Virus record (IMG/VR): IMGVR_UViG_3300032770_000023
Span: 1 to 62,335 of that record
Source of the DNA: a virus
Lineage: Duplodnaviria > Caudoviricetes
Strand: one strand, 5' to 3'
Length of the DNA stretch: 62,335 bases
The notes below the pieces were generated by a model. It had not been told where the DNA came from, searched no databases, and saw only the letters and a program-made list of their open reading frames with translations. The number at the start of each line of letters is the position of its first letter. Within the stretch, counting starts at the first letter, position 1. Below are positions 14,017 through 58,167 of this stretch, one piece after another. The translations under genes and the position numbers were made by a program.

Positions 14017-14020
14017 TTTT

Positions 14021-14221
14021 CTACTCGGGTAGAAACTTCAAGTTCGTCAGTTGAGAGAGCGCAGGAACGATGTACTTGTCGTTGAACTGCTTTTCAGTCA
14101 GCGTCCCTACAGCATCCGCTCTGTCAACCTTCACTGCGATCCAGACAGCAGCCTTTTTCGAGTCGTTTTTCTCTTTTGGATCGTGAATCCTGATCGTAAG
14201 GATGTAAGAATCGTCTGCCAT
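14021..14221 (-). CDS. Hypothetical protein
   Basis: 66 aa ORF with RBS, packed between neighbours; stop lies inside the dispersed hairpin motif. Confidence 0.55.
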   Translation of the reverse strand: MADDSYILTIRIHDPKEKNDSKKAAVWIAVKVDRADAVGTLTEKQFNDKYIVPALSQLTNLKFLPE

Positions 14222-14239
14222 TCGCTGCCTTTTCGTTTC

Positions 14240-14557
14240 CTAGCGACTTTTTACGACGGGATGACGGTTAGCTTCGGTATAAGCGACTCCCCACGTGTGG
14301 GCCGCTGTGCTGCTGTACATCCACGCGTCTGCGAGACGTTCGTGATGCTTGTGCCGCGCTAACTCGTACATTCCTACCGTCAGTCCGAATTTCGCCCCTT
14401 GTGCTACAGCCAACCACGCTGTTCCGTGAACGAATGGACGCTCCAACGGATTGACTTCAGGAGCAGTCCACGCACGAGTGTTGATCCGCTGATTCGTGAA
14501 ATACGCATCCGCTCCGTGACTGGCGCCCAACGCGAGAATCAGGATCAAGGTTTTCAT
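14240..14557 (-). CDS. Small membrane/secreted protein
   Basis: MKTLILILALGASHGADA N-terminus plus further hydrophobic segments. Confidence 0.5.
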   Translation of the reverse strand: MKTLILILALGASHGADAYFTNQRINTRAWTAPEVNPLERPFVHGTAWLAVAQGAKFGLTVGMYELARHKHHERLADAWMYSSTAAHTWGVAYTEANRHPVVKSR

Positions 14558-14651
14558 TGATAGTAAGTAAGTACCGCTAATATCGCGAGGACCACGGCTA
14601 CAGCAGCTGCTAACAGCAGCCAAAACGTTGCTCTGTCTTCAGGATTCAATC

Positions 14652-15455
14652 TCATCCCCACGTCCGGCTCTTGTAGTTGAATGTCGTCTCTTTGTGCGAC
14701 TCTCGTCCGCCCGGAACACCAGAATCCCGAGTAGACATCCTCGGAACTTGTGTGTTCAAACCGAACACAGCCGCTCTCGCGTTCGCTGCATTTCTCAGCA
14801 GAACAGGATGAGCCGCTTTCTCTGATCCCGGAAGCGCATCCTCAGCCAACGAAAGCATCATCGCGTTCCGATAACCCGGAGGAACCGTGTTGACGGTCTG
14901 ATTCGGTCCGCCTATCGGATCAGTGATCGAAACAAACTGATTGATCGTCGTCCAGCATTCGAGACGCGCTCCGTATGCTGAATTAGGAATCGGCCAGAAG
15001 TAAATCGAGCCGTTCGGAAAGTCTGGCGAGTAAAAGAAATCCGTGGGCTGCTGAGACGGTAGCAGTTTGATCGACTGATCCATCCACCAAGCTCTGTCTC
15101 TTGGTTGCAAAGGAACTTCGACTTGCGGCGTCACATTGTTCAGAATGATGTTCGCCTTCGGAATCCGCGTCGGTCTCTGAGTGACAGAGAACGTCGCTCC
15201 CGCTCCCGGACCAATCGTGTGAGGAGAGAGATTCGGAACAAGTGTGTAAGTGTTGAACGTATACGCCCAAACAAAGTTCTGTCTCGTTGCCCAAGTGTCG
15301 AGCAAGAAATTCAACTTCCTGAGCAGCCACTGGCCTACATCCGGTTCGAGTTCATCGCCGGGAGACGTGATTCCGATCTCTATCGCGGCATCGAGACATA
15401 TGTCTCCGACCGTATAGCCTAGTGGCTGTTCAGAACCGGGAGGAACTATCGGCAT
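14652..15455 (-). CDS. Head-tail adaptor, P22 gp4-like
   Basis: TVGDICLDAAIEIG...LNFLLDTW and PPGYRNAMMLSLA patterns; synteny. Confidence 0.7.
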   Translation of the reverse strand: MPIVPPGSEQPLGYTVGDICLDAAIEIGITSPGDELEPDVGQWLLRKLNFLLDTWATRQNFVWAYTFNTYTLVPNLSPHTIGPGAGATFSVTQRPTRIPKANIILNNVTPQVEVPLQPRDRAWWMDQSIKLLPSQQPTDFFYSPDFPNGSIYFWPIPNSAYGARLECWTTINQFVSITDPIGGPNQTVNTVPPGYRNAMMLSLAEDALPGSEKAAHPVLLRNAANARAAVFGLNTQVPRMSTRDSGVPGGRESHKETTFNYKSRTWG

Positions 15456-15842
15456 TTACTGTCCGCTGTCCGAGATCGCGAGCACGACGCTGCCGCTTCC
15501 AGCGACCGTCGGCGTTCCTGTGACGTTAAGATTTCCGTCAGCACCGATTGAAACACTGACGCCATCCGGCAACTGATTCGGACTCGAAGAATCAACCGCT
15601 ACGGAATACGGAGCAGTTCCACCGCTGATGAGATCGAGTCCAGAAGTTACGTTCAGAGCTTGACCTACTTGTCCTGCGACTGATCCAGAAGTTGCAGATT
15701 CTGTGAAAGGTTGAGGGGCTGGCGAGATGTTGAGCGTGAGTGTGAATTGAAGTGTTGCCACGAATGATTCTCCTTCTTTGATTTTCTCGACTAAGCAACG
15801 CAGAAGACGTTCGAAAAGATGCTCTATTTCTTCGTGCCCCAT
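15456..15842 (-). CDS. Small protein with putative Ig-like domain
   Basis: SGGTAPYS...LPDGVSV...TGTPTVAG pattern of putative-Ig repeats. Confidence 0.55.
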   Translation of the reverse strand: MGHEEIEHLFERLLRCLVEKIKEGESFVATLQFTLTLNISPAPQPFTESATSGSVAGQVGQALNVTSGLDLISGGTAPYSVAVDSSSPNQLPDGVSVSIGADGNLNVTGTPTVAGSGSVVLAISDSGQ

Positions 15843-16577
15843 GAAGCCTTCTGTTTCTTGCCGTTCTCTTTCTCCGGCTCAGGTTCGGCTTTCGCTTCGA
15901 CTGGCTCCGCTGCCTTCTGGGATAGCAGAAAAGCCTCTTCCTCTTCCTTCGAGTTCACGATCTTGTAAATCGGATTGTCTCGGTTGTCGCGCCCGATCTC
16001 GACTCCCGTGTTCTTGGGATACGCTTGATGTTCGTAAGCGCTCCCCGTGATGTGCTCGTGCTTCAGTTCTTTAACGTTTCCGTTTTGCATTGCTGTCTCC
16101 CTCTGCGATTCCAGACGAAGTGAACTTTGACGCTATTTCAGGATTCGTCAACGGATCGAGTGTTCCCTGAACTCCAGCGTTTTCAAGAATCAGTTCCTGA
16201 ATTCGCTTGTGAGCCTCTTGAGCAGTCACGTATCCCTGAGACTCGGCGAGTTTCAGTTCCTCTTCCGTGTTTACGATCACGGTCGCGGGAGTCGAAGCAG
16301 GAAGCGGCATCGGCGGAAGAGTCGGATTCGCTGCGTTCCTCCGCATGATCCCGTTGCGCTCAGCTTCGATCTTCGGATCGTTGTGCGCCCGGTGATACAA
16401 GACTTTCGGGAAAGACTGGTGACGGTACTGCTTCCAGTTCGGAGAGCGCTCCGGATGATGAATGTCGAACGAGTCATCTGACTGCTTGATGATCTGGTTC
16501 TGTGTCTCGCTCAGAAGTTCGAGCAAAGCACGCTTTTTTTGCTGAAGGTCTTGGAAATCAGTTGGTGTACTAGCCAT
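15824..16577 (-). CDS. Two hypothetical head-module proteins (16071-16577, 15824-16090)
   Basis: Overlapping, RBS-bearing ORFs that share a YxHQxF/YPK motif. Confidence 0.55.
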
Positions 16578-20211: not shown

Positions 20212-20238
20212 GTTTTCACCTCTCAGTTTTGAGTTTTT

Positions 20239-22512
20239 CTACTCGGTAGAATTCTGATCCGGCTGAGCGTTCTGCATAGCCGTCATTCCGGCTTCATGTG
20301 CTTGATCGCTCTGCTGTTGGCTCTGTTGAATAGCTGCCTGCTTGTCGGCAATAGCGTGCTCTTGCGCATGATCTTGAGCCTGCATCGCTGCCTCGTGTGC
20401 CGCTCCGTGATTCTCTTGCCAGAACGTCTGATACATCTGCTGACGCTGTTGATCGTCTTGAGATTTCGCTTGAATCTCAGCGATCAGAACTTTGATGTCG
20501 TTTGCCAACTGCGATCTGAAGTTCTCGTTGTCCTGCTTCATCGCCTCAAGATGAATCTTCGTCTGCTGCTCCAAGACTCTCCCGGCACGATCCTCGTGAA
20601 GCGCGGCGTTCTCCTGCTGAAGTTGCTGAACGAGTTGCTGCAACTGCTGGCTTTGCGCTTGAAGCTGTTGCGGGTCTCCCGGCTCAGGAGCGAGTATCTT
20701 TACAACTTCGTCCATGATCGGACCCATTTGCTGATACTTGATCGACAATGCGAGAATCTGCTCTCTCTTCGCGGGATCAGCTACGAGCGCAGCCAATTCC
20801 TGAACCAGTGTCTTCAGGAAGTCTTGAGCAGCATCGCGTTCTGAATCCTCGTTCGGGCCGACGCTCACCGTAACGTCGAACTCTCCGAGTTTCATCTGAT
20901 AGTGATACTGATCTCCGTCTGGTCCTTGAACTGGCTGATCCGTGTTGATCTTGACGAGCATTTCCTTGCGATCTTTCTTCATGATCGGGACTTCGCGCTC
21001 GTTCACTTCCACCTTTGAGATGAGATCGTTCACGATCCTTCCGGCAGCAGCAATCGCTCTGTTATAGTTTGCGATGAAGTGATACGACCCAAGATCGCTC
21101 TGCTCGTCTAACTCCTCAATCGCTCTTCCGCTTTTGACGTTCGTGTCATTCTTTCCGATAGACGAGTTATACATCCCGATGGCACTCTGAGCAGCCTTCG
21201 CGAAACTCTCTGCGCCGATCTCAAGGTTCTGAATCGGAGGATCGAACGGATCGCGCTGCGGAGGAGGAAGCGGATTGTCGTCTGCCGTCATTCCTTCGAC
21301 TCGCGCCTTGTAGTACAAGAATGCTTTCGGAGAGCGGTTCGCGTCTTCTACTTCTTCCTCGTGTCCTTCGAATTGCCCTTCTGCCGCCATCCAGTTCGAC
21401 TTTGGAACCATAGACGCGGCTTCCATTTCGCAAGTCTTGAAGTAGTTGTAGCCCATCTGAGCATCGCGGGCATTCCGGATGAGCGATTGAAGCACACGCT
21501 TCGAACCTTGAGCCTCGTCGAGATACAACTCCTTTCCGAAACATGGCACTATCGGAATCCACTTTCCAAGCCACGCATTCTCTTCCAAGATTTCAACGCC
21601 GTTCGTGATGTACTGCACGATCTTTTTGCGCTTTGCTTCGCGTGTCTGAACTACCTTGTATCGCGTCGATCCAAACACAAGATTCTGAATGTCGCCTTTT
21701 CTTTCCAGTCTGGCTCCTTTGAGGGATGACAAAAACTCAGACAAAGGTCCGACTTTCGGGTCCATGAATTGCACTAACTCATCGTCTTCTTCCTCGACGC
21801 GCCAATACTCAGCAATCTGAATGAACTTCTCTTTGACCCATTCGGGATAATCCCCTGCAAGTCCGTCGAAGTCTGTGATCGATGCTTTCGGATACTTCCT
21901 CTTGAACTCGTTGATGAGAATCTGATCGAGAACGAAGCAGTGTTTCGCATCCGAGCAGTCGATCTCTTTGCACGCTTGATCGAACAGGATCGCGTCGGGA
22001 TTCGGAACGCGGCAAATCTTGATGATTTGCTCGAATGATTTCTCGCTCTCGTAAGCCAGAAGGATTCTCAGATAGCCGTAGGAACGCTGACAAGCATTCT
22101 CCAACATCGTGATGTAGGCATCTTGAGCCTGAGAGCGGTATTGAATAGCGCGGACGCGGTTCTCTCTGAACTCGGCGAGCTGAGCCGTTGCTCCGTATCC
22201 CGCTGGACTGATCTTGATCTCTCGCGGATGCTGTCGGACTTCATTGATGATCAGATTCGTGTACTGATTAAGAATGTCGATTGCTACGATAGGCCTGTTC
22301 AGTTGCTTGCGAGCTTCTTTCTCTTTTTCGGGCCAAGGATCGTTCGCGATGAACTTGATGTCTTCTGAGCCAGCGTCCCGGATGTCCTTGAATGCCTGAG
22401 TATCCCACTCGAAGTTCTCGACTAGTTCTTCAAGCAAGGCGTCAGATGGATTATCTCTGACGTTTATCCCCACACGAGACTGGGTATTATGAACTCGTCC
22501 GGTATCAGGCAT
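20239..22512 (-). CDS. Portal protein, P22-like
   Basis: 757 aa; RPIVAIDILNQ, WIPIVP, LIRNARDAQ and FDVTVSVGP motifs; Gln-rich C-terminal barrel helix. Confidence 0.88.
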   Translation of the reverse strand: MPDTGRVHNTQSRVGINVRDNPSDALLEELVENFEWDTQAFKDIRDAGSEDIKFIANDPWPEKEKEARKQLNRPIVAIDILNQYTNLIINEVRQHPREIKISPAGYGATAQLAEFRENRVRAIQYRSQAQDAYITMLENACQRSYGYLRILLAYESEKSFEQIIKICRVPNPDAILFDQACKEIDCSDAKHCFVLDQILINEFKRKYPKASITDFDGLAGDYPEWVKEKFIQIAEYWRVEEEDDELVQFMDPKVGPLSEFLSSLKGARLERKGDIQNLVFGSTRYKVVQTREAKRKKIVQYITNGVEILEENAWLGKWIPIVPCFGKELYLDEAQGSKRVLQSLIRNARDAQMGYNYFKTCEMEAASMVPKSNWMAAEGQFEGHEEEVEDANRSPKAFLYYKARVEGMTADDNPLPPPQRDPFDPPIQNLEIGAESFAKAAQSAIGMYNSSIGKNDTNVKSGRAIEELDEQSDLGSYHFIANYNRAIAAAGRIVNDLISKVEVNEREVPIMKKDRKEMLVKINTDQPVQGPDGDQYHYQMKLGEFDVTVSVGPNEDSERDAAQDFLKTLVQELAALVADPAKREQILALSIKYQQMGPIMDEVVKILAPEPGDPQQLQAQSQQLQQLVQQLQQENAALHEDRAGRVLEQQTKIHLEAMKQDNENFRSQLANDIKVLIAEIQAKSQDDQQRQQMYQTFWQENHGAAHEAAMQAQDHAQEHAIADKQAAIQQSQQQSDQAHEAGMTAMQNAQPDQNSTE

Positions 22513-26211: not shown

Positions 26212-26233
26212 TAGACACATTGAAGGCAAGCAT

Positions 26234-30572: not shown

Positions 30573-31338
30573 CTAATTGATTGATTCTTTAGGGGTTAGT
30601 ATCTCTCCGCAGCGAATGCAGCGAGTCGGAGGAATTGACGAATCCGGAAAGTGTTCGAATTCGATGTCGTAACTCACAAGTCCGTCTGCTGACTGCAACG
30701 TGAAATCTACAGCGCACGGATGAACTTCGAAGTCTTCTTTGCCCTTCATGCGTTTGCCCTGTCTACTTCCGTCTTCGTGACCATAGCGCACCACCGAGCA
30801 GCACGCGCCCGAGCTACGTGAAATCCTACTTTGTTTCCTTTCGGATCATGGCAGCGCTCTCCCGCGGGAACGAAGCACACTTCGCAGTCAGCATCTATCG
30901 CCGAACCTATCGGCTTAGCTCCGGGATTCAACGATTCTTTCGAGTTCCGCTGCCAAGCAAGCTCCGCGTCTGTGAGCAGTTGAATCATTTTTCTACTTGA
31001 GTAGAAATATTCATGCGCCAAGCCTTGAGCGTCATCGACGCGCGCGTCTTCAGCGCCCGCCCAGCTCGTCCGTGATCGTTCTGCCAATCAGCAGAGCGCG
31101 GCTCCTGAAACTTCAGTCCGAATGCTACGTTAGAAGAGAGACTGTCGGGGATGTACTTGAACTGCTGAGGGACTATCCGAAGAAAGGTTGTGCCGGGAGG
31201 GAAAAGACGTATCACCTTGCGCGAGATCGACTCGGCAGCAAGACGTTGGAGCATCAATTCAGCAACAGCGCTCGATACGAATGTTGTGGGACGCGCTGTT
31301 CTTTCGTGGTAGTGAGCTAGAACTCCGACGTTAGGCAC
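30573..31338 (-). other. Three small hypothetical genes heading the late operon (30985-31338, 30746-30988, 30573-30749)
   Basis: Coupled ORFs with ATGA overlaps; two contain CxxC. Confidence 0.5.
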
Positions 31339-39733: not shown

Positions 39734-39856
39734 TTTTCTTCTCAGTAGAAACTTTCTCGCCTTTCGGATCGCACTTTCCTGAATGACCTCTCAACCGCAT
39801 ACAAGTTTTCTGCACGTAAGGGCTTACGTCTACTACGTTGTAGCAATAATGGTTCA

Positions 39857-43246: not shown

Positions 43247-43582
43247 CTAGACTTCTTGGGACGCGCACTCTTCGTAACGCAAAATACCGTTCTTGTGAAA
43301 CAGAATCTTTCGTCCATCGGTCGCTAGAAAAAACACCGTAAACATGTCGAATCCTTGAATTATCCCTTCTACGACTTCATGGGGTCCGACGATGCGAATC
43401 TTGATCTTGTCGTGTTTCCACGTAGACAGATATTTTCTTTGGATGAAATGCGGATCACGTTTTTCTTGCTGACGACCTGTGAGTTTTACTGGGGGAGGGA
43501 TTTCTTCTTGAGGCTCTTGAACGAGACCGTTTCGTTCTTGCAGTCTACGTCCAAGTTCTCTGATCGTTAAACTTTCTGGCAT
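43247..43582 (-). CDS. Divergent Hfq-like Sm-fold protein
   Basis: IQRKYL...VEGIIQGFDMFTVFF...ILFHKNGI aligns by eye with Hfq LQDPFL...QGQIESFDQFVILL...MVYKHAI. Confidence 0.65.
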   Translation of the reverse strand: MPESLTIRELGRRLQERNGLVQEPQEEIPPPVKLTGRQQEKRDPHFIQRKYLSTWKHDKIKIRIVGPHEVVEGIIQGFDMFTVFFLATDGRKILFHKNGILRYEECASQEV

Positions 43583-43687
43583 TGATTACCCTTTTTCTGG
43601 AGCGGGGTAGAGGGTTAAACTACCCCGCCCTTCTCCTTCAACGAAAACACTCTACTACAGAATTCTCTCTGCGTACAATTATTTTTT

Positions 43688-46149
43688 CTACTCAGTAGAA
43701 ACCTTGCGCTCGCTCCAGTATTCCGAGCATTCGACGCCATGTTCCAGCGTCGTCTTGTTCTTGATCCTGATCGAGCTTGCAGGATCGCGATTGATTTCGC
43801 TCACGCGACTTCTGAACGAGCTTCCGTACTGAGCGTGCAAGAAGTCTGAGCCGAATCTCTGTCCGATTGAGTTCGTGAACATGCGCTCGATCCGCTCGCG
43901 CTTCGACATGCGGACTCTGAAAATAAGCTCGGTTTGAAGTGGAATGCACTCGTTCATCAGAATCACCTCGCGATGGCAATACAGCCTAGTTTTATTTTTG
44001 CTAACTTCATACGCTCTTTCGAGTCCGATTTCTTGCGCGGAAACGTTGAGAGCGCCCGTCCTTCGCATTTCTCACAGAGAACTGCATCCGCTTTAGGAAC
44101 AGCACAAAACGATGCTTTCAAACGACGCCTGAATGTAGTCTCTTCAGTCTGAATGAACTTCGCCATACCGCATATCGTCTCCGCGATGATGCACGGCTTT
44201 CGAAGCCTAATCATCTTGTCGTAACTACCTCGCCACCATCGAACTTGAACATATGAAACTCTGTGAATCAGCGAAGCGTTATGACTCAGCGAGTAAACGT
44301 ATTGCGGGAACGATTTCGCGTAAGTAACGCCCCATTCGTGATCGGAGAAGTCTGGCCGCCCGGGATATACGATCTCTCCTAGAGTCGAAAACTCCGTGCT
44401 AATCTGCTCTTTCATCTCGTCTCTCCGTAAACCGCTCTGCCTTCGCGTTCCTTTACCGCCACAGCAATCTTCTTGCTAGGAGCGTCTAAAAAAACTACGG
44501 AATTCGCTTCCGAACGCCAAGAACCGTGCCGGATGCTCGTGGCAGTAAACGAGACGGGCCGCGTAGCTCCGCACGAAATGCACGACTGCCACGCCTGCGC
44601 CCCTTTTCTCGGACTGATCGGCCAAGTGACGTGCTCGTGAGAACAGCCAAAGAGATAGGAAAGTAGGTTCATTAGTGCGCCCTCGCGGTAAATCCGGGAA
44701 GTCCCGGTAGAATCCTCGATCCTTTAGGTCTGATCGGAGCGCGTAATGTTTGAGCATCCGGAGTACAAGCGGGTTTCGTCCACAGCAAGCCGCATTCGTC
44801 TACTCCGACGAACTCGAAAGGAAGATCGCATTCGGTACAGCGAATCGTGATCTCAGCGAGAAAACCTTTGACTTTTCCGATGGGGGAATCGCCTTCGCCG
44901 ACTCGATTAACCGTTACGTTCGCGTGAAAGTTCTCGTGCTTACACTTCATTCGCTCCGCCTTTCTACTCAGTAGAAAAACTCGATTTATCTTTGATCGTT
45001 CGCAAAGCGTTCCTACTCGTAATCGCCTCGAATCCGTCTTCGAAGCGCACCCAACAAGAGTTCATCTTCCCTCTCGCGATCACTCGGCAATATTGTCCCT
45101 TACGACCCATCCGATTCCAGAAGTAGACGTACAGTTTTTCGGAATTGTTGTTTTTCATCGTCCGCTGATCTTTTTACAAACTGTACAGTGACAAGACTTC
45201 GCCTGCTCTCGCAGCCAATCCCAGTTCACCGTCGCGCTCGTTACCTTCGACGTAGGCGCTTCGTTCGTCTTCTTGAACTGATCCCGCTCGGGACAAGTCG
45301 TCCAGTGAGGCGTAGCGGTTCCATAGTCGCACGGCATTTTCTTGTTGTTCGGAGTGATCCACCATTCAATATCGACTCCGCAACCTCTGCATTGACTTTC
45401 GCCTTCGAACTTGTAACCCTGACTTCTTAACTCATCGAGAGTCTGCGGAAATGGCATATTGTTTCTCCTCTTCGAACATTTCTTCTTGCTCTTTCAGACG
45501 ATGAACGATTCTTTGATGACTGCGCATCCCTGAAAGCGTTCTCGTTACGGCTCCGCATTCGTCGATCAGACACTTGAAAGCAGCAGGACGACCGCCAAGA
45601 GGCTTCCCGTTCTCGTCTACCTCGTATAACCATCGGATCGTTTGTCCGCCAATCATGCGCTTTCCTTTAACTCTCAGTGTTTCACGTAGAAATAAACTAC
45701 ATAAACAACGGTCCAAAAAGCGCAGACCGTGAGAAAGCACAGTCCGAGTCCTATCAATCGATTGACGTTCACTACCAAACGCGGGTTCCTCATCTCAACG
45801 AAACAAGCCGGACAAAGTCTCAACTCGAACAACTCTTTGTCGCATTCGTAACAGTTGAAAATCTGCGAGCACTTCTGACAGCGAAGTCTCAGCGATTCGT
45901 ATTCTTTCGGCCAACTGACTGCTTTTTGTGTAGACATAGTGACGCGCCCTCCCAGACGGTCTCAAATCACTTCATCCCAAAATCCCCCTTCGAGTTCTCC
46001 CAATCACTTTTACTTGTTTCCTGTAAATACGCACGCACTTTCTTGGCAACTTCCCAATTGTTTGTTGCAGCCGACAGGTGATCTTGTCGGTATTCGAAAC
46101 ACAGTTCTCGCGCACCGTCGGCAACTAGCAAAGCTAACTGATTGGCCAT
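43688..46149 (-). other. Cluster of small hypothetical genes, many Cys-rich
   Basis: Coupled ORFs such as 43963-44415, 44412-44672, 44672-44950, 44964-45158, 45155-45457, 45674-45937 and 45967-46149. Confidence 0.5.
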
Positions 46150-47351: not shown

Positions 47352-47363
47352 TTTTCTTCTCCG

Positions 47364-48778: not shown

Positions 48779-48786
48779 TTTTCTAT

Positions 48787-49640
48787 TCAGCAGAAATTCT
48801 TCTCACTCAGAGCCAACCAGACAGCCATCCACTTCGATCCTGAACGAGTATCAGGAGCCAGAAAAGCGTTCAACTCAGCCATGTCCCGCGCTTGCCAGAT
48901 GCTGTCGTGACACTCGTCAAGCAGTACTAGCGCGTGAGCTTCGGGAGAGGCGAAGTAGGTTGTCTCGTCGTGAATCATTCTCGCCCCGATAGATTTCTAA
49001 TTTGACGTTCTTGCTCGGCGAGCTTTTTCTCTAGATGCTGAACTACTCGACAGACGTTCTGTATCGCGCAGCGCAATTCTTGCTCGCTCGCTGACTCATG
49101 CTCTAAGTAGTTATCGACGGCTTCCAGATTGCCGTACAGCAAATCGCCTAGTTTGCTCATATCTTCCTCCGTCTATCTACGCTGCGAAGTACAGATTCCC
49201 CGACTTGCGCAGCATCTTCGCACTCACTAATCCGTTCATCAGCCTCTCGAACTGCTCCAGCGTGAATCCGTGAGTCATCATCGCCGCATACAACGTTCCC
49301 GCTGGCGCTCCGAGTGGCCCTGCCAGTTTTACCGACTCGATCACCGCATCGCAGATCGCTTTCAAGGCTTTCAGTTGAGTAGATGTCATAATCCACCGTC
49401 CGCATCTGAAGTGACCGTGAAACCGTCAAACGCTCCACCGAAGTCACACGACTCGGGAAGTCTTCGAGCCATCCGAGCGCTCGCAATCTCTGGCGTCGAT
49501 TCGATTACCTGAATGATCTTCGTGTCTGTCTCGGAATCGGTAAGAGCGATCTCTCGCGCTTCTTTCTCAGTTTCTGCCCAAACATCAGTGTCGTTCAAGA
49601 AACCATCAGAGTATTCCGTAACGACTGTGAATCTTTTCAT
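48787..49640 (-). other. Four small early genes (49386-49640, 49177-49389, 48975-49160, 48787-48978)
   Basis: Coupled ORFs with SD sequences downstream of an AT-rich promoter region. Confidence 0.55.
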
Positions 49641-49674
49641 CGCTGAACCTCGCTCTGAATTTGACTACGCGGAT

Positions 49675-49720: not shown

Positions 49721-49743
49721 AATCGTGCATCGCGCAAAGTTTA

Positions 49744-50277
49744 CTAAAACGGTATATCCTCATCGCTGATCGGATTGAACGAAAGAGCGGTTCCCGGAGG
49801 TAGATCGGGTTTCTTTTCCTTACGCTTGATCTCTGCGAGTCCCGCGACGGTATTCGGATAGTGAGGTGCTTGCTTAAACTGATCGAGAGTGATCCACTCG
49901 TCGAACACTTGCCACGGCGCTCTCTTTTCCTTCTGTCGCCAACTCTGAATGAGGATTCTTCCTCCAGAAAGCAGGACGAGTTTCGCCTCCATGCTTGCTA
50001 GAATCTTATTTCTACGAGCCGCGTGGTTGCTTCGCGATGTAGTCTGCACGAAGATGAAATCAGCGTTTTCCTGAGAACCGTCGCTAGGCTTACAGGCGAG
50101 CACATCGAAACAATTCCATAGATCGACACTGATCTCAATCATCGGACGATGACCGCAAACCCTGCATTCTTGCTTCTTACGGTCCGGGAACTTCTTTTTT
50201 CCTTCCACAGTCGCGACGAGATAGCCGCGCTGTTGGAGATATTGGCGAGTTCTGATCTGAGGAGATACGCCGCTCAT
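49744..50277 (-). CDS. PD-(D/E)XK-type nuclease, possible Holliday junction resolvase
   Basis: YLQQRGYLV..VE, DLW..FDVLA and FVQTTS motifs. Confidence 0.6.
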   Translation of the reverse strand: MSGVSPQIRTRQYLQQRGYLVATVEGKKKFPDRKKQECRVCGHRPMIEISVDLWNCFDVLACKPSDGSQENADFIFVQTTSRSNHAARRNKILASMEAKLVLLSGGRILIQSWRQKEKRAPWQVFDEWITLDQFKQAPHYPNTVAGLAEIKRKEKKPDLPPGTALSFNPISDEDIPF

Positions 50278-50435
50278 TTTCGTTTCCTCGCGGGAATAGA
50301 GACTCCGCGTTTGTCGGCGAGTTCCTGTAGCGCTGTGCGAACTACCTGAGCCTCTGAAGCTGCGTGCATGTCGTCTTCGAGAGCTTCGAGAAGATCGCAG
50401 AAATAGTCATCGAGATTAAAGGTTTTCATGCTCAT
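50274..50435 (-). CDS. Ribbon-helix-helix (CopG/Arc-like) regulator, 53 aa
   Basis: Manual translation MSMKTFNLDDYFCDLLEALEDDMHAASEAQVVRTALQELADKRG...; beta-alpha-alpha pattern; sits at the strand switch. Confidence 0.6.
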   Translation of the reverse strand: MSMKTFNLDDYFCDLLEALEDDMHAASEAQVVRTALQELADKRGVSIPARKRK

Positions 50436-50442
50436 GCGGAAG

Positions 50443-50509
50443 AGCATAGCACTATCGTAATAGAAAGTCTATAAAAACTCTTTACAGCGTCTAGTTCTTG
50501 TGCTTTAAT
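50443..50509. promoter_or_regulatory. Divergent promoter pair
   Basis: Minus: TAGACT-N17-TATGCT (50471-50443). Plus: TTTACA-N17-TTTAAT (50481-50509). Confidence 0.6.
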
Positions 50510-50526
50510 GCTCTCGTACTCAAGAA

Positions 50527-53500
50527 ATGAGGCCGAAAATGCTCGAACTTCACTCTGATCCGCTCTATATAGTAGTCAAGAGAGTCATGGACAACGCGAG
50601 ACTCTGTCGGCACTGCTACAAACCTTACGACGAGCACACGGCAGCGCTCTCGATGTGTCCTTGGCCGAATCGCAGACAGAATCATTTCTCTCCGATCTCT
50701 TGTCAGCACATTTCCTTGAGTCGTGGAGCGCACACCGAGCAGGACGAGTGCAACGCGATGTGCGGCAGAGAAGTCGTTGTCGGGACTGAGTACTGCTCGA
50801 AGCACATCGTCGGATAAAGTTTCTACTTGAGTAGAAAAATCTAGGAGGTGGCCAGTGAGTGAGACTGAGAGGCAGACTAAATATACGATCTGGATCGGCG
50901 TGATGTGGTGGCCCGTAATCGCCGGATTGTTGTTACTCGTTTTCTTGATTGGGAGATCATGTCGATGACTGAGAGGACAGCCCTTATTTGCTACAGAGTT
51001 TTGCTGTTGGTCAATTCAGTGGGATGGGTCCCTACCCCCAAGCGTAGGAGAAGGTGGTGAGAGATGGTAAAACGAGGCGATCAAGTTGGAGAAGCACCGC
51101 AGATAACCAAGGCACAGGAAGATGCTCTTGGGCAAGACATTGACACTCTAGATAATCTGGCGCACGCATTACTCCTCAGGATGCCCGCAGATTTCCACGT
51201 GAAGCAACTTAAGCAGGCGCTGCCAGAACTCGTGGAGCGATTCAAGAACCACTTTGCCGATGCGTTCGGTTGGGACCCATGGGAAGGACACCCTGACCAC
51301 AAGCGCAAAGTCGGTGGGTAGGGACCCATCCCATCGGGACTAAGTTCGGAGACGTGCTTTGTAGCGAAGAAAGGAATTTTATGACTGAGAGGACAGCGCC
51401 CAATATCGTCTGGGTAGTAGAAATGTGGAGCGAGATCAACAGGAAGTTCGAGCCTACTGTTGGTGTCCGGCTTACAAGGGATGAGGGCCGGATAGAACTA
51501 AGGGCATGGAGTGTGCGCAATTCATCAGAACGATTCAGGTTGAAGAAGTATGGAGCAATTTCATGACTGAGAGGACAGCACCAACGCGGACGCTGCAACT
51601 GTTGGAGCGATGCCGAAACTTGCTTATCAATGCGGACGATTATCTGCACCTTACATACCGCATCGACTCTGACGACAAAAGGCGTGAGATAGGTAGCGGA
51701 ATCATCATGGCAATGCGGCAATTGCGGAAGGATATTGAGGCGGTGCTCCCAGCGACGGACGCGGACTATGACTGGCTGCACGAATCCGATCCCCTTCTGG
51801 CGGAATTGAAGTACATCGCAGACAGCCCATTACCGGAGCATGGCGGATTTCATCCCAGAGTAGTCGCAGCGGCAAAGGGAGCGGTTGAGAGATTAACCAG
51901 AGCGACGGACGCGGGCACGGAGCCGCGGCACTTGGTTCACGAAGCGCGGCAGATGATTCTAAAGCGATGGGCTAAGTATTCTGACCCGAAGAATTTGGAA
52001 TGGAATTTTGATGAGGTTGACAAGTGGGAGCGCCATGCCATTAATGCTGTCCTCGATCTGGAAATGGCAGAGATAAGCGGGTGCGTTAGGACTCCCGCTC
52101 CGCCGACCGGCGAGAGATCGAAGGGAGAATCGAATGGCTAACTCAGAATGGAATCGGGCAGCGCGGAAGTCCGGCGGAAATCGGCCAGCGCGGTTCAATA
52201 TGCCGAATCTCTCGAAGGCCGATCTGGAGATTCTTCAACAAGAGGCGCTGATCCGCAAGGAATTCGGCGAGGAAGGTGTGAGGAAATTCTGGGAGATGTT
52301 GCCTGCGGAAGATGATGCCGAGAGATCGAAGGAGACGCAAAAATGAATGCACAGGAACTGCTGCTGCACATCAAGGAATTAGGCCGCGTAACGATGGCTA
52401 CCGAATCGGGCCGAGAAATGATCTTGGCAGCGATTGATGAAGTTCTCGGGGCTTCGTCCCTGCCGCAAGCAACGCCACAGGACACGACGATTGAAGAAAA
52501 TTTGGCCGATTATGCTAGGCGCGGGTTTGAAGCATTCCAGATGTACCGCACCGCTTGGCTGCGAGAGATGGGTGGAGTAATCGTCCCGAAGCATTGGGAA
52601 ATCGACGGATTCGTGTTGAGAGCGCGGGATATATACGAAAAGGCGCAGTTGGTGGATCGCATCAAGAAAATCTTGGTCGATGAATCTAAGAAAAAATCGG
52701 ACGGACTTCACATGTTCGACGCCGTGTTCAAATTTCTAGCCCAAGATGGCAAAGATAAAGTTCCAACGAATTGAGGCCGCGCCCAAAGAAGCCTAGCCCA
52801 CCATGTCAGAAAATTGCCGCTGCGTTATCTGCGACGAATGCATGGGTAGCGGATTCCATCGCGTTGATGATTGGAGTCAGCCAGAAGGGTATGACCTTGA
52901 AACGTGCGATACATGTCGGGGGAGCGGTTTTAGTGAGATTTGCGAGGAATGTTATGACGCGGACAAATACGAGGGAGGAGCCTAGCCCATGCCCGAACGG
53001 AGGAAACAATGAAACATACACCCGGTCCTTGGGAGTTTGAGAAGCGTGATTGTCTCTCAATGGGATCAGTTCACTATGCCGTCAAGACTTCGCACAAGGT
53101 TCCTGAAACGCCGTGGTCTCCGCGATTCATCGTGTGGGCGTGCGGCAGCTTGGGCGAAACGATGCACAATCGAAAGCCTGACGATTACCGCGACGATCCA
53201 GCAATTGAAGCCGACGTGCGCCTGATTTCCGCCGCGCCGGATTTGCTCGAAGCACTTCATCGGATGCTTGTAAGTTTCTCCGGGAAAGATGAGGAGCTAT
53301 GCATGGAATGCGGCGAGAAGGCCGGCACTGGCGAGACCTGCGATACGTGCTATGTCATCGGCAAAGCAATGCAGGCGATTGAAAAGGCGACCGGAGAAAT
53401 GCTATGAAATTCTGCCTCATCTTCTTGCTTCTCTCCACCTCCTGCGCTATCAAGAGGCCCGTACAGGCACAACTGAAAATCGATCCTGCGAGATATTCAC

Positions 53501-56500
53501 TGGAAGACAACGGATTCGCTGAGGGAGTTCCTTGCGATACTCCACTTTCGGCGGAAGAGAAAGCGGCTGGCTTGTCATGTATGAAGAAAACGCAGTCTTG
53601 GACGATTCGCTGCGACGATCCTCGCACGATTGACATTCTGCCAAGAGTAAATAACCCATTGTTTTACGACTTCGGCGAAGCCCAGGAACGCGGAGAGAAG
53701 TTTTGGTGCGTGATTCCCGTTGAGAAGAAGCATAGGAATCCGCTATTGGCGATGTATTGTGACCTACGCTCTGCGGACGGCAAGCACTGCTTAGTATGGG
53801 CGAAACATCCACAAGCCTGTGTCAATGGTCCGCAGACAGGCGATTGCACAGCAGCAACGAAATAAGGGCGGGGGGTTGAGGGAGGAGGGGACAATGGCGA
53901 CGGAAAAGGCTGTCGAGTTCGATGGAATGCGCTGGCCCTTACCTGACAGCGATTTGGCGTGGAAGGCGCGATACGGCAAACCGACGCAGACTGAAATGTA
54001 CTGGATCGCCTCACGGTTGGAAGCCTATGCCCACCTAATTGAACACACGCAGAAGCGCAGGAATTATATCTGCAAACGATTGAAGGGACGCGGGGAGGCT
54101 GGAGGATTGCCATGAACTACGTTCACATTTACAGATCTAGACCGTGGCAGCCGATGACTCGGCATTGGCATCCCTATCTGGAGAAGTGGATCAACACACC
54201 GCCGCGAAAGAAGTATCGGTGCCATGAATGCGGCGATGAACGGCAAGCGAGATCGTTGGAAATCAGCATAGATTACGACCGACTCAGGATTCGCTGTAAG
54301 GGCGGGAAGCATCCGGGTTGGGTATAGGCAGGGAGAGGCCATGAACGAACGCGAGAAATGCCCGACATGCGGCACAAGTTATAAGCACTATTTTGACTAC
54401 GGTAAGGGATGCTCTGCAATAGGGAAGCACGATCCTTGGCATGATGCTCCTCAGCCCGCAGCGCCGACGCCGACAATTAATACGCCGATTGTTGTAATGA
54501 AATCTGTAACGCCGAACGATAGCAAGCCGCCATTGCATTATCACGTCGAGCCGCCTCTAGAGCCGGGTGAATTCTTCATGACTCGCGGCGATGGCGTACA
54601 GGAACGATGCCGATATGTGGGCCAATCCGTAACGATTCCGTGGTCCGTAGCCAGCTCCGAACCACCAGAAAAGCGCGATCCAGCCGTCGAAAGCGCAGAC
54701 GAACTTGCGAAAGCGGCATTCGCTCTTGGGAAACTAAGAGGCAAGTATGAGGCCAGTGAGGAGCTGGGGCGGGATGTGATTGATAGAGATGATGCACTAC
54801 TTATTGCCGACGAATGTCCAGCCGAGGACTGCCGCTGCTACGAGCGTATTAAAACGTTCAAGGCAGTGCGTGGCGAGGGGCCGGGGGACGAACGAGCGGC
54901 GCTACTGAAAACTATCGTTAGTCAAGCTCGGGAGATTGCCATTCTAAGATCAGAGTTGGAGAGTGAGCAGGAGCACATTTCTAGACTATGTGCAGAATTG
55001 CGTGATGCTGAGGCGCGTGCGAAGACATGATTAAAGTTTATAAGGATAAAGCTGTCCATCGCATGAAGCGTTATCGAGGACTCGCGGATACCTACTGCGA
55101 ATGTGGATATTTTCTGTGCGTAATGGCCGAGGGAGCATCGTACACGGGATTTATCGACTGCCCGAAGTGTTTACATCGCTACGAATTCGTAGATTCTTGC
55201 AGGCCAGTGGGTACTCCGGGAGCGGGGAAGTAAGCCTTATTTGCTACGAAGGAGAAAAAAATGGAAAATTCACAGCGTTGGGTAGTAATTGTCGTGCTTT
55301 CATTTGTAGCGATTGGAGTGGGATGCGTTGTTTGGTTCGGATTCTTCTCGAATGTTCACTTTTTCAACCGCGAAATTTCGCAAGAGCAACGGGCGAATGA
55401 GGCAGTCGGCGCGAAAGTTCTACCGAAAGCTCCGTTGCAGATCGTCATTAAGAACAAGCCGAACGAGTGTAGGGTAATTGATAGCGCACGACTAGATGGC
55501 TCTGATTTGTGGGTGTACTACCACAATGCCTGCAACAGAACGACTACTGACGACACTATCCACTGGAACGGAATCGCGCCTGACGGCACCGTGATCGTCA
55601 GTGGATGGACTTACACGCGCAGCGATCTTGAGTCGGGACAAAAGGCCGAATTCCATGCGGACGACCTAAAGGACGACCCGCGCATGGTGACATTAGAAGT
55701 AAAAGCTAGATGGAATGACAATCCCTAAGTTGGGGGAGCGGGAAGCGAGGGAACGAAATGAGCTGGTTTAGAAGATTTTTCTGTGATCATGATTATCGTT
55801 TCGTGCGAAACATCTACGGCGACGAGATTATTACATGTGGGTATAAGCGCAGCCTGTGGCAATGCTCCAGATGCGAAAAGCTGAAATTCCGAGAGAAATT
55901 AGTCCAATAGGGTGAATGGAATGAAATGTCCAGAGTGTGAAATTGAAGATGGTCATCTAGGAGACTGCTTTGTCCCGATACGCAATCTCCTGACGAACGT
56001 AGCCCAAATACTCGATACCGTAAAACAGGAGTGGGGCGCATCGTGGAGCACTTGGGATCAGGAGCAGCGAGACGCTATCACCGAATTTTTTCGCAAGCGG
56101 TCGGGCGATTAAAGGGAGACGTGGACACCATCATGGGATTTTTCGGGATTGTAGTCATGCTCACAATACTGACTATAGCTGTGGCGCTGGCGGCTGTGGA
56201 TATCACTAGGGCGCTGCATGAGATTCGAGAGGAGTTGCGGCGGCTGACGGGCGGGGAGGGGCGGAAATGACGCTGGCTCATGTTGCTTGGATGCTTTGGG
56301 CGGAAGACAATGCTATCGGATGGATTTGTACGCCTGAGCAGATTCGCAAACTTTACAAATTGTGGATGGAGGAGCCAACCCGATGACCTCTTTAGCTTTG
56401 GCACTGGTACTGGCAGCGGTAGGGCAGCAAGCGCACATTCTCTATTGTCGCGGAGATTCCGCAGTGATGACGCCCTGCTACGATCCGCCTGTTACGGGCG

Positions 56501-56905
56501 AGTTTCGCTATCGGGGATATATGTGGGACGGCCACGTCTGGCGAGACACTCAGACATGGCAGCCGCTTGACGATCCTGAGCCGCATCTCGGTTCGCGCAC
56601 TCCGGTCACGCTGGAGCCAAGCGGAGCCTATGCCTTAAGAAATGCGAACGTAGCAATCAGGGTAGATAGTTCTGGCGAAGAGCCAATGGACGTGCCAGCG
56701 ATCAAGCACACGAAGAAATGCGGTGACTTGGGCTGCGTCTTGAATGCACCCTGCGTTATAGTTGGAGGTCGCATCGGTGGCCCCCCCTCCCACAAATGAA
56801 GCAGAGTGCAAATTCGGCCCGAGCGTTACATAGACCTGTACCGATCCCAAGCGCATCCTTCTGGTCTCAGTAGACGGGAAAGAGCACCACTGCGTAAAGT
56901 TCTGA
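50527..56905 (+). other. Rightward block of ~20 small accessory/early genes
   Basis: Chained ORFs, e.g. 50527-50817, 51064-51321, 51563-52141, 52343-52774, 53009-53407 (HTPGPW...LISAAPDLLEAL), 53404-53865 (lipobox-like TSC), 54341-55030, 55261-55728. Confidence 0.6.
51020..51333. repeat. Perfect 18-bp inverted repeat flanking an 85-aa ORF
   Basis: TGGGATGGGTCCCTACCC at 51020-51037 and its reverse complement at 51316-51333. Confidence 0.85.
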
Positions 56906-56908
56906 CTG

Positions 56909-56939
56909 AAAAAGGCTCCCGAGTAACCAAGAGCCTTCT
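56909..56939. terminator. Possible bidirectional terminator between convergent blocks
   Basis: AAAAGGCTC...GAGCCTTCT stem at the strand convergence. Confidence 0.45.
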
Positions 56940-57215
56940 CTAAACCTGCTGCCAGCGCTTACCGCATCGATTCCTAGCGATGTTTCAGCTTAAACCGTAG
57001 GCGACGAAGAAAGTCGATAGAAACCGCTCCGTCTGCGTTTGGCGATTACTTCGAAGCAGCGATCACGGCCTGATACTTAGCATCGGCATCGGCCAGAATT
57101 GTGTCCGCCGTTTTCGTGCTGTTTCCGCTGATGAGGTTCTTCAATTCGACGACGCTCTCTGCTACGAGCGCTGCTAGACTCTCGATGTAGGTGATCAACT
57201 GAACCGTTGATTGAT

Positions 57216-57692
57216 CTAATGGCATGTTGATTTCTCCATGTATTTCTTGATTTGTTCGAAATGTTTTTCCATCCACCCTAACTTTAGATTGCAGGATGAA
57301 CAGAGCAGTCCGCGAATTTCACCCGTAGCGTGATCGTGGTCGATTATCAGCCTACCAGCCCATCTTCCTTCATTCACGCCGCCGCAAATTTTGCAGACTC
57401 CGTTTTGGCTAGCAAACATTACCTCGTAATCTTGATGCGTAATCCCGAATTTACGCATCAGATGAGAGTTTCTAGCCATAGCTGCCCTTATTACCGGATC
57501 GGTATTCTTGTAGTAAACCTTAGCTTTTTCTTTAAGTCGATCTCTGTGGCGCAAATAGTACTGTTTTCTGACTTCCGTAAAACGTTCCTTTCTACCGCTC
57601 CACCATTGCGCCTTGTAACAATAATCACAGAGACCCTTGGCTGAGTGTTTCCTCTCCGGATGACAAGTCGGCTTCCGTGCAAGTCTGGGCAT
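57216..57692 (-). CDS. Endonuclease VII-family endonuclease
   Basis: KFGIT..DY, CKICG and DHDHATGEIRGLLCSSCN motifs. Confidence 0.85.
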   Translation of the reverse strand: MPRLARKPTCHPERKHSAKGLCDYCYKAQWWSGRKERFTEVRKQYYLRHRDRLKEKAKVYYKNTDPVIRAAMARNSHLMRKFGITHQDYEVMFASQNGVCKICGGVNEGRWAGRLIIDHDHATGEIRGLLCSSCNLKLGWMEKHFEQIKKYMEKSTCH

Positions 57693-57695
57693 GCT

Positions 57696-58130
57696 CTACT
57701 TTCCTACCGTAGCAGCGATGATCGCAACTGACGATTCCGCTCCGGTGATGATGGTTGACAGCGTGAGTTTCAGAGTGGAATTCGAGATTCCCGCGAGTCC
57801 CTGAGACTGTAGCGCGTTGAAAGCATCGAGAAAAGAGTTCACTTGAGACGACAGATCGCTCGCTTTCTCGTTCGCTCGGATGCCCTGATCGATGATCAAG
57901 CCAGCCTGAGCGACTTTCGAGATGTACGAATTGAACGTCGATGCTTCCGAAGCAGTGATCGTTCCTGCTTGAACTCCCTGCTGAACTGCTGTCTGAGCAT
58001 CTGCCAATGCGTGAGAAATAGCATCTGACGCAGTAGCGAGATTCTGCGTCGTTTGGGACTTGTTACAAGTGAATCCACACAAGAGCAGCGCTGCGACGAG
58101 TACCGCTCCTGTTGAACGTGATCGATTCAT
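57696..58130 (-). CDS. Secreted/lipoprotein in the lysis module (spanin-like position)
   Basis: Signal-like AVLVAALLLCGFTC followed by a helical body; follows the endolysin. Confidence 0.5.
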   Translation of the reverse strand: MNRSRSTGAVLVAALLLCGFTCNKSQTTQNLATASDAISHALADAQTAVQQGVQAGTITASEASTFNSYISKVAQAGLIIDQGIRANEKASDLSSQVNSFLDAFNALQSQGLAGISNSTLKLTLSTIITGAESSVAIIAATVGK

Positions 58131-58167
58131 ATGCCTCCTTAGATTTTTCTACTCGGTAGAAACTTTT

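Follow-up and report, generated by a model that had tools for sequence, protein, structure and literature searches.

Translational operators and stem-loops that sequester ribosome-binding sites, exemplified by the coat-replicase operator of phage MS2 and the targets of T4 RegA, carry the Shine-Dalgarno (SD) sequence or its spacer, abut a start codon and bring about coupling or repression; in the case of RegA, many such targets are distributed through a single phage. The intercistronic RNase III sites of phage T7 are about ten processing hairpins in polycistronic transcripts, the cleavage of which leaves a 3′ hairpin on the upstream mRNA, and repetitive extragenic palindromic (REP) elements are short palindromes lying just after the stop codons of operons, with reported effects on mRNA stability and on upstream translation near the stop. 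At the level of DNA, the stoperators of Cluster A mycobacteriophages (L5, Bxb1 and TipsytheTRex), as PMC9283540 describes them, occupy short intergenic spaces in an orientation that correlates with transcription, with more than 20 sites in L5. T4-like phages carry PeSL (promoter-early stem-loop) motifs, presented in PMC4122927 as small conserved intergenic stem-loop motifs that are repeated within one genome and linked to mosaicism.

Here we describe a short self-complementary sequence that recurs ten times in the genome of a tailed virus, IMG/VR record IMGVR_UViG_3300032770_000023 (Duplodnaviria; Caudoviricetes). The stretch analyzed, hereafter the window, comprises the record in full (62,335 bp, completeness rating 100%). 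The motif is real, highly non-random and private to this phage, and is a member of no family that we tested. From its placement at gene junctions and its register with stop and start codons, we favor, at a probability of roughly 40%, a role as an RNA stem-loop operator that would gate translational coupling between neighboring genes or bind a phage factor.

Ten copies of a private motif at cistron junctions

A first-pass annotation of the window had listed ten copies of a hairpin-like motif at gene junctions, and a systematic count bears this out. The exact pattern TTTCTAC-N{3,4}-GTAGAAA occurs six times in the genome (at 14018, 30990, 43685, 44961, 50820 and 58146) and not once in 100 dinucleotide-preserving shuffles. 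Allowing up to two substitutions yields 13 matches, ten of which are the sites previously noted (the six exact copies together with 20236, 35148, 39735 and 48780); the remaining three, each with two mismatches, lie within genes (5325 and 42901) or at a gene start (55241). A covariance model built from the ten copies and run on the genome with filters off recovers all ten on the sense strand at 30.8-40.2 bits, the next new site being a 15.3-bit match on the minus strand at 4005-4040. The motif also constitutes the largest direct-repeat family of the genome (families D1-D3 and D8). Perfect 7-bp hairpins with 3-4-nt loops number nine, where 20 mononucleotide shuffles average 7.4; it is this particular sequence that is enriched, not perfect 7-bp hairpins as a class.

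On the sense strand the ten copies share the consensus RAAG-TTTCTAC-(Y)YRA-GTAGAAA-AAT. Loop length varies between 3 and 4 nt, as originally noticed, with five copies of each kind, and all five of the 3-nt loops read YGA. The trinucleotide AAT flanks the 3′ side in seven of the ten copies and its mirror image ATT flanks the 5′ side in none; this asymmetry reverses in the rightward gene block, following gene direction. The single copy in that block (50820) had been described as flipped, which is correct for its flanks, where the A-run and AAT stand on the 3′ side, but not for its palindromic core, since the core with its TTGA loop reads on the plus strand as do those at 30990 and 35148.

All ten copies lie in sense orientation at cistron junctions of co-oriented genes, and at nine or ten of the ten sites the upstream stop codon falls within the stem or loop or no more than 8 nt from the stem. 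At four junctions the ATG of the next gene follows immediately (GTAGAAAAATG), at the very positions given by the first-pass annotation (14016, 30988, 39733 and 48778). In the copy at 14018..14035 (minus strand; TTTCTAC-CCGA-GTAGAAA then AATG; 35.7 bits), the 3′ arm contains the TAG stop of a 66-aa open reading frame (ORF; 14021-14221), and the ATG of the Hc3 gene (12487-14016) comes directly after. At 30990..31007 (minus strand; TTTCTAC-TCAA-GTAGAAA then AATG; 35.6 bits), the upstream stop stands just after the stem and ATG 30988 opens the gene for an 80-aa phage zinc-finger protein (30746-30988), the first gene of the packaging/late block. The copy at 39735..39751 (minus strand; TTTCTAC-TGA-GAAGAAA then AATG; 38.6 bits) is a variant with one broken pair, in which the TGA of a 34-aa ORF lies in the loop and behind which the ATG of a helicase/methyltransferase gene (37529-39733) directly follows. 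That at 48780..48796 (minus strand; TTTCTGC-TGA-ATAGAAA then AATG; 33.6 bits) is a variant with one G-U pair and one mismatch; its loop supplies the TGA stop of ORF 48787-48978, and the ATG of an HNH endonuclease gene (48269-48778) is directly adjacent. Two of these motif-adjacent starts, those of Hc3 (MARYGL) and of the helicase, are confirmed by N-termini conserved in relatives.

Four further copies are separated by 10-21 nt from a start codon that has its own SD. The portal gene ends with a TAG stop (-STE*) in the 3′ arm of the copy at 20236..20252 (minus strand; ATTCTAC-CGA-GTAGAAA; 32.2 bits), and the scaffold gene starts 21 nt on, behind its own SD (GAGAGGTGA...GTG). At 44961..44977 (minus strand; TTTCTAC-TGA-GTAGAAA then GGCGGAGCGAATG; 30.8 bits), the 3′ arm again holds a TAG stop, here of a 64-aa ORF (44964-45158; -STE*), with the next start 10 nt on and an SD of GGAG. 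The copy at 50820..50837 (plus strand; TTTCTAC-TTGA-GTAGAAA then AATCTAGGAGGTGG; 39.1 bits on the plus strand and 23.3 on the minus), the only one in the rightward block, begins 2 nt past the TAA of a 96-aa Cys-rich ORF (50527-50817) and precedes a 37-aa ORF (50855-50968), while that at 58146..58162 (minus strand; TTTCTAC-CGA-GTAGAAA then AATCTAAGGAGGCATATG; 40.2 bits) begins 5 nt past the TGA of ORF 58168-58521 and precedes gene 57696-58130. For the last two copies the downstream start is more than 100 nt off (up to ~160 nt). At 43685..43701 (minus strand; TTTCTAC-TGA-GTAGAAA; 35.7 bits), two ORF models place the upstream stop either at the TGA of the loop or at the TAG of the 3′ arm (-STE*), and a gene for an Hfq-like protein starts ~100 nt downstream. 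The copy at 35148..35165 (minus strand; TTTCTAC-TCAA-ATAGAAA; 31.2 bits), a variant whose closing pair is broken, sits at the end of ORF 35143-35334 (-ISTQIEN*), the stop of which lies just after the stem; this is the last gene before an accessory region containing tRNAs and insertion sequence (IS) fragments. The common C-terminal tails to which the first-pass annotation drew attention are indeed present: the portal shares -STE* with the ORFs ending at 43688 and 44964, and those ending at 30985 and 35143 share -ISTQ(V/I)E(K/N)*. No copy falls within the IS1595 element (26183-27232), again as had been stated.

The 3′ half of the motif has the form of an ordinary ribosome-binding site (RBS) of this phage, (G)GAG-(A/T)AGAAAA-ATG, as found at RecT (47356) and at 27548 and 55241, and its 3′ arm plus A-run amounts to the ribosome-binding spacer usual in this genome, GAG-N7-ATG. 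One such RBS, at 55241..55257 (plus strand; TTGCTAC-GAA-GGAGAAA then AAAATG, before gene 55261-55728), resembles the motif as a whole (TTGCTAC-GAA-GGAGAAAAAAATG); it departs from it at two positions and carries a true SD (GGAG) where the motif has GTAG. The homologous junctions of relatives have plain SDs: the Hc3 gene of one relative (L002), which encodes the same MARYGL N-terminus, is preceded by GAGGAGG, and the 12 helicase relatives inspected have ordinary purine-rich SDs. At the portal-scaffold junction of two relatives (L007 and L014, ~8720-8745), which reads TTTTCTTCCGAGGATAAAAACTCC, the segment TCTTCCGAGGATAAAAACTC matches TCTACCGAGTAGAAAAACTC of the window at 17 of 20 positions in L007 and 16 of 20 in L014. 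This look-alike of the copy at 20236 supplies the scaffold ATG with a normal SD (GAGGA), and the likeness in sequence fits a derivation of the motif's 3′ half from an RBS.

Comparison with other genomes shows the motif to be confined to this phage. Megablast returned no near-identical phage or E. coli record, and the best portal match in a phage collection is 31% identical. The major capsid protein retrieved 16 IMG/VR loci, in which the capsid is 57-81% identical and only the structural module is shared; the motif is absent from these by regular expression, pattern search and covariance model. It is absent as well from 80 loci retrieved with the helicase (up to 83% identical; 1.17 Mb in all, sharing essentially only that gene), in which the covariance model gives two marginal hits (E 0.074 and 3.5). 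A RecT metagenome scan produced a single distant match, and positional conservation can be compared at the head module and the helicase only. No recurring short-hairpin family is present in 63 related sequences, where any stem occurs at most three times against seven in the window, and among the matches listed by an exact-pattern scan of IMG/VR were single chance copies and an unrelated AT-rich 64-bp tandem repeat (L141). Rfam, its CRISPR-DR families included, matches no copy, either across the whole window (E<=5) or in 43640-45020 (E<=10).

Proposed RNA operator or DNA site

We favor action at the RNA level because the copies hold a strict junction position, stand in register with four start codons (two of them confirmed) and carry stop codons inside the stem-loop, and because their 3′ half is RBS-like, their asymmetry follows the sense strand and their loop length varies freely. 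A loop can easily vary between 3 and 4 nt, which is harder for a rigid dimer operator, and this variation favors an RNA hairpin. The element would then be a phage-private cis-acting mRNA signal, a short UUUCUAC/GUAGAAA stem-loop with a YRA or YYRA loop placed exactly at junctions, whose 3′ arm and A-run would double as the ribosome-binding spacer of the next gene. A ribosome terminating at a stop in or beside the stem would melt it; at four junctions, melting would free a weak SD (GAG) and the AUG 7 nt downstream, such that the downstream gene would be translated only together with its upstream neighbor, and at the other six the element would stand just upstream of an ordinary SD. Most likely, the stem also docks a sequence-specific trans factor that would set the passage of translation or processing at each junction, since the sequence of the stem is near-invariant while its stability is low. 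This factor would probably be phage-encoded, with the Hfq-like protein as one candidate.

A number of observations weigh against an RNA operator. Although 66 of the 70 pair cells are paired, none of the seven pairs is changed on both sides, so that there is no compensatory change, and all four departures, the unpaired cells, break or weaken a pair; there is in addition one G-U pair. The isolated stems are weak (-3.8 to -4.8 kcal/mol), folding is marginal (-1.2 to -1.9 kcal/mol) in three variant copies, among them the copy that precedes the helicase ATG, and the 61-66-nt contexts are no more stable than shuffles (z -1.76 to +1.06). Six of the ten copies have no adjacent start codon, for which reason coupling alone cannot explain all of them, and the flank asymmetry could be mere A-rich composition ahead of start codons. 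Positional conservation in relatives, the lack of which the first-pass annotation had named as grounds for refutation, mostly fails to appear: the head-module and helicase relatives are without the motif, and the sole exception is the degenerate look-alike that L007 and L014 have between portal and scaffold. Hfq proteins, moreover, are not known to recognize a particular stem sequence.

Minimum-energy folds of the same 61-66-nt contexts include the motif hairpin in seven copies, include it in part at 35148 and lack it at 39735 and 48780; in favor of the RNA strand, the variant at 48780 keeps a G-U pair where the other strand would give C-A. With a weak hairpin and three copies broken without compensation, it is sequence rather than fold that is conserved: a sequence that happens to be self-complementary, the fold stability of which is not demonstrably conserved. 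The original preference for an RNA hairpin over a rigid dimer operator keeps the argument from loop length, but covariation and folding lend it no structural support; the wider proposal of a genome-wide processing, translation-control or protein-binding signal still fits. The element that holds an SD or spacer, abuts a start and has a stop nearby is seen at four copies, while in the remaining six a stop is nearby and the next start lies 10 to ~160 nt away. The weak stems, the uncompensated variants and these six start-less copies oppose a purely structural role, and we therefore favor a stem-loop that would combine with a sequence-specific dock.

Conservation of sequence but not of fold stability is also what would be expected of a protein-binding site on DNA, and the main rival to an RNA operator, doubtful but to be taken seriously, is a stoperator-type site at which a small phage DNA-binding protein would grip the 7-bp inverted half-sites and brake or block RNA polymerase, so as to time or silence the genes downstream. 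In stoperators proper, elongation is halted by the bound repressor. The core is palindromic, its half-site centers are 10-11 bp apart (about one helical turn), and the variants that are not compensated retain one intact half-site. The many transcription-oriented sites in short intergenic spaces are reminiscent of L5-type stoperators in the account of PMC9283540, and the motif, as are stoperators, is lineage-specific. A degenerate half-palindrome (TTTCTAT-TACG-ATAG) lies just upstream of the first leftward early gene (50274-50447), and the binder might be an undetected ribbon-helix-helix (RHH) protein or a zinc-finger protein; the 80-aa product encoded directly after the copy at 30990 (30746-30988) has a phage zinc-finger DNA-binding domain. 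Set against these points, the spacer varies between 3 and 4 bp in equal halves, a symmetric dimer gives no reason for co-orientation, and the register with four start codons and the stops inside the site point to the mRNA. Known stoperators, moreover, are in the same account asymmetric 13-mers bound by a monomer. Profile searches of the phage genome, with controls working, detected no Phage_integrase, Resolvase, Sigma70_r2, HTH_3 or RHH_1; since integrase, resolvase, HTH_3 and RHH_1 are all undetected, there is no sign of lysogeny or of a classical repressor, and gene 50274-50447, which the first-pass annotation had taken to encode an RHH protein, receives no support for that assignment from Pfam.

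Two further functions of hairpins were considered and rejected. An intrinsic (Rho-independent) terminator, in either direction, is at odds with a stem in which two of seven pairs are G-C and with A's rather than U's following in the sense direction; the antisense side of the copies offers short pyrimidine runs only, and a terminator scan called none of the six copies in 42336-62335. For an RNase III processing site of the T7 type, which calls for some two helical turns of duplex, a 7-bp stem of about -4 kcal/mol is too short.

The candidate trans-acting RNA-binding partner of an RNA operator is the 111-aa Hfq-like protein encoded at 43247..43582 (minus strand), which may be linked to the motif. 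It matches the Pfam Hfq profile at E 5e-4 and 20.1 bits, below the 27-bit cut-off; the top six matches among PDB sequences are Hfq without exception (E 0.02-1); and of 30 feature hits in the ESM Atlas, 26 belong to clusters of Hfq or Hfq-related proteins (score 0.93), with TM 0.57-0.67 to Hfq clusters, several of them commonest in Acidobacteriota. The single-sequence fold is poor (pLDDT 44), and close homologues were not found, one search returning only the protein itself and two distant hits coming from among 1.84 billion representatives. The protein has a divergent Sm2 motif, and its look-alike clusters are commonest in Acidobacteriota and Aminicenantota. In an extended form of the RNA-operator reading, which we consider a long shot, the ten stem-loops would be the operators through which a virulent acidobacterial phage runs a post-transcriptional regulon of its own, and a phage RNA-binding protein (the Hfq-like one being the candidate) would clamp the stem and its A-rich flanks and thereby meter ribosome re-initiation and mRNA survival along the ~55-kb polycistronic array.

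Genome layout, host and further explanations

The phage is a podovirus whose complete genome (62.3 kb) includes a P22-like head module. PHROGs and Pfam identify a P22-like portal, scaffold, major head protein, head-closure protein Hc3 and DNA-ejection protein; a large terminase, a helicase fused to a DNA methyltransferase and a DnaB-like helicase; and RecT-like and RecE-like proteins, an HNH endonuclease, two endonuclease-VII proteins and a PNKP-type phosphatase. There are two tRNA genes, and most of the small phage proteins are without any family match. Nearly all of the genome belongs to one leftward gene array of ~55 kb, which runs from 50447 to 1 and continues from 62335 to 57216; a rightward block occupies 50527 to ~57000. 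The genome thus has ~55 kb of genes in one direction and no recognizable phage polymerase, sigma factor, repressor or integrase. Since no other signal stands out genome-wide, the junction motif offers the best access to the expression program of this phage. The organization of gene expression in phages of Acidobacteriota is uncharted, these viruses having hardly been studied.

A phage-specific promoter or start-site element is one conceivable function for such a signal, and would consist of a ~23-nt element from which transcription initiates near the A-run to give leaderless or short-leader mRNAs. The motif is a conserved, oriented element of ~23 nt ahead of genes, the copy at 30990 precedes the first gene of the late block, and four copies would yield AUG-proximal 5′ ends. 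We nonetheless hold this to be quite improbable: no T7-type RNA polymerase was found in the phage genome, though the control of that search was silent, sigma region 2 was not detected, and no gene is of the size of a giant virion polymerase (the largest ORFs are one of 757 aa and a T/G/S-rich, fibre-like one of 1401 aa). There is no -35-like conservation upstream, the divergent early control region (50448-50526) is free of full copies, and most copies occupy tight operon junctions where they overlap stop codons. A sigma-70 -10 reading of AAAAAT was also discarded, as the start site would fall past ATGs confirmed as real starts. The short divergent region 50448-50526 itself separates the leftward gene 50274-50447 from the rightward gene for the 96-aa Cys-rich protein and contains the TTTCTAT-TACG-ATAG half-palindrome just before the leftward ATG. 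In the rightward block, small paralogous plus-strand genes (50855-51600) share the start ATGACTGAGAGGACAGC (MTERTA...) at 50956, 51372 and 51554, and strain-level contigs differ there by whole-gene insertions and deletions.

The motif might alternatively be a recombination linker or junction cassette that does little regulating in itself, namely an RBS-derived sequence copied during gene acquisition or gene conversion. The genome is mosaic, with relatives that share only the head module or only the helicase, and it encodes RecT/RecE-like recombination functions. Flanks are shared beyond the core: the copies at 50820 and 58146 both read AAAG-core-AAATCTA(A)GGAGG, and positions 4040 and 14037 both read TTGAAGTTTCTA. 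The mobile-type HNH gene starts directly at the copy at 48780, the L007/L014 look-alike at a homologous junction suggests an origin from an RBS, and contigs in two runs begin inside copies, a weak indication. Such a linker is unlikely, in our judgment, given that 17-24 nt is short for homologous exchange, that the copies at 14018 and 20236 lie inside the conserved head module and not at module borders, and that the promoter-plus-terminator composite reported for PeSLs in PMC4122927 has no counterpart here. Near-invariant stems in seven of ten copies suggest ongoing selection, and the strain-level indels of the rightward block do not end at the motif.

The contig ends in question belong to two wetland runs (X1 and X4) and fall inside the copies at 48780 (48788-48789) and 58146 (58149). 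In the source run, no contig covers the HNH gene just downstream of the former, which could hint at presence/absence variation of that gene or, alternatively, at a filtering artefact. Across four wetland runs, coverage by DNA contigs was patchy, and the copies showed no variation that could be used.

The 15.3-bit covariance-model site at 4005..4040 (minus strand; TTGAAGTTTCTA-GGAGAACACAT-GAAGAAAAATG; E 0.53) may be a degenerate eleventh copy; it again occupies a junction, where gene 4037-5389 stops and the long fibre-like gene starts (ATG 4019). The minus-strand ORF from ATG 4019, with its signal-peptide-like start MKKNAVAVILLLGGVCAAQ, runs off position 1, and in a circular reading it becomes 1401 aa long, rich in T/G/S/A, with its stop at 62151 (1-4019 plus 62151-62335). 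Because this ORF continues across the ends when the record is circularized, the record has been cut within a gene, and what were called as ORFs on the plus strand at 250-3929 are spurious. The adjoining 450-aa gene (4037-5389) has a similar signal-peptide-like N-terminus. The closest structural relative (G001, 61.4 kb) carries a 27-bp tandem repeat (GCCCTGCCGCGACTTCGGGC...) at both contig ends (L017, 1-160; L020, contig positions 61178-61396), probably one repetitive gene split by a circular-assembly cut. Between the replication and packaging genes of the window, 31500-35150 is a scrambled accessory region with a tRNA-Asp (minus strand) and a tRNA-Ile(tat) (plus strand), in which different parts of PHROG family 25593 lie on opposite strands (33731-34240 minus, 31509-31928 plus) and the 418-aa plus-strand ORF 33890-35146 looks non-coding.

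The plus-strand IS1595-family transposase gene (26183-27232), which sits on the opposite strand among late genes in a virus record rated complete, encodes a protein that shares 93% amino acid identity with its counterpart in a Candidatus Sulfotelmatobacter metagenome-assembled genome, and nearly all of its best 80 loci are from Acidobacteriota. On the strength of these transposase matches, the host is most likely a Terriglobia acidobacterium. Sequencing runs containing the phage DNA are exclusively wetland metagenomes. In five candidate host genomes the stem pattern occurs 0-3 times each, about as often as a reversed control pattern; among 401 genomes sampled from the presumed host's order (one unpublished genome, G037, included), 133 have at least one match and none more than four, with no excess over the reversed control. 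A host regulatory motif was accordingly rejected, the candidate host genomes holding the stem pattern at chance level only. Also set aside was a recurrent TTTCTACGGACGTAGA in Terriglobales genomes, which is probably the end hairpin of a mobile element by a serine-recombinase-like gene and is unrelated to the motif. In Terriglobales genomes (L318-L325), a long conserved hairpin, CTGTTACATTC-TTTCTACGGACGTAGAAGAAA-CGTAACAG, stands just ahead of a serine-recombinase-like gene starting MAKSRFVSYLRVS; this hairpin, recurrent in many host-order genomes, is probably a mobile-element end, and the TTTCTAC/GTAGA that it has in common with the phage motif is a chance likeness.

The host genomes bear also on mimicry of a Cas12a (type V-A) repeat, whereby the junction copies would imitate the 5′ handle of the CRISPR RNA (crRNA) and soak up or misload the Cas12a of the host, in the manner of RNA anti-CRISPRs made of solitary repeats. 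The first-pass annotation had noted that the UCUAC/GUAGA stem matches the Cas12a repeat stem, and so it does: together with the preceding UUU, it equals the FnCas12a handle as given in PMC9508855 (AAUUUCUACUGUUGUAGAU), and the 5-bp stem is unchanged in seven of ten copies. AAUU precedes the stem in three copies (20236, 35148 and 48780), with AAGU, AUAU, AGGU or GUUU in the other seven, and type V-A RNA anti-CRISPRs (Racrs) exist and work, RacrVA1-3 being those presented in PMC10651486. The terminal GUAGAU, however, is missing from all ten copies, as had been remarked at the outset, with GUAGAA in seven, AUAGAA in two and GAAGAA in one; five of the ten loops have 3 nt against the 4 nt of the FnCas12a handle in PMC9508855; and the copies are embedded in coding junctions with no promoter-like element upstream, whereas Racrs, as PMC10651486 portrays them, are small RNAs with promoters of their own. 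Rfam, as stated above, gives no match. The Cas12a profile TIGR04330 was found in none of the 401 host-order genomes, a search whose positive control was silent and which is thus not validated, and in these genomes the stem pattern, at four or fewer per genome, never forms an array. CRISPR mimicry, already rated the less likely option from the missing GTAGAT end, loses further ground with half of the loops at 3 nt and neither Cas12a nor arrays found in the genomes sampled, and we regard it as very improbable. The motif shows that perfect identity to the Cas12a stem does not suffice to identify a CRISPR mimic.

Comparison with known systems

By analogy, the motif resembles known genome-wide phage junction signals in its logic, while differing from each of them in construction. 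Relative to the MS2 and RegA operators, there are here ten near-identical copies in a double-stranded DNA genome, six of them without an adjacent start; the binder is a candidate only, and the stems are weaker and are without the defining bulge and loop features. The RNase III sites of T7 are long irregular duplexes of ~20 bp or more, in contrast to a 7-bp A-U-rich stem, and REPs form families of hundreds of copies in host chromosomes with a cognate RAYT transposase, in contrast to a motif confined to one phage.

The likeness to the type V-A repeat and to RacrVA lies in the stem, UUUCUAC...GUAGA being identical to the Cas12a crRNA handle as given in PMC9508855; the motif is without the final U, half of its loops are shorter, it has no promoter of its own and it is located at coding junctions. 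With PeSLs, in the description of PMC4122927, it shares the form of a small intergenic stem-loop motif repeated through a mosaic genome, a similarity that extends to its interpretation as a cassette. PeSLs, however, are described there as composite terminator/promoter sequences (an early promoter plus a stem-loop terminator) at the borders of indels in hyperplastic regions, whereas the motif has no promoter- or terminator-like part, and two of its copies are inside the conserved head module.

Of the patterns known, that of the stoperators comes closest. The resemblance is one of arrangement, all ten copies lying at junctions with a flank asymmetry that follows gene direction, the rightward block included. 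Stoperators, according to PMC9283540, are asymmetric 13-mers recognized by a monomeric immunity repressor in temperate phages; the sequence described here is a palindromic 7+7 with a variable spacer that overlaps stop and start codons in fixed register, in a genome where repressor and integrase are undetected. Were it a DNA roadblock site, the stoperator principle would extend beyond temperate actinophages. Were the copies instead RNA operators read by a phage factor, they would represent a compact and portable way of tying together the translation of neighboring genes, and a private RNA regulon of this kind would do at the level of RNA what stoperators do on DNA.

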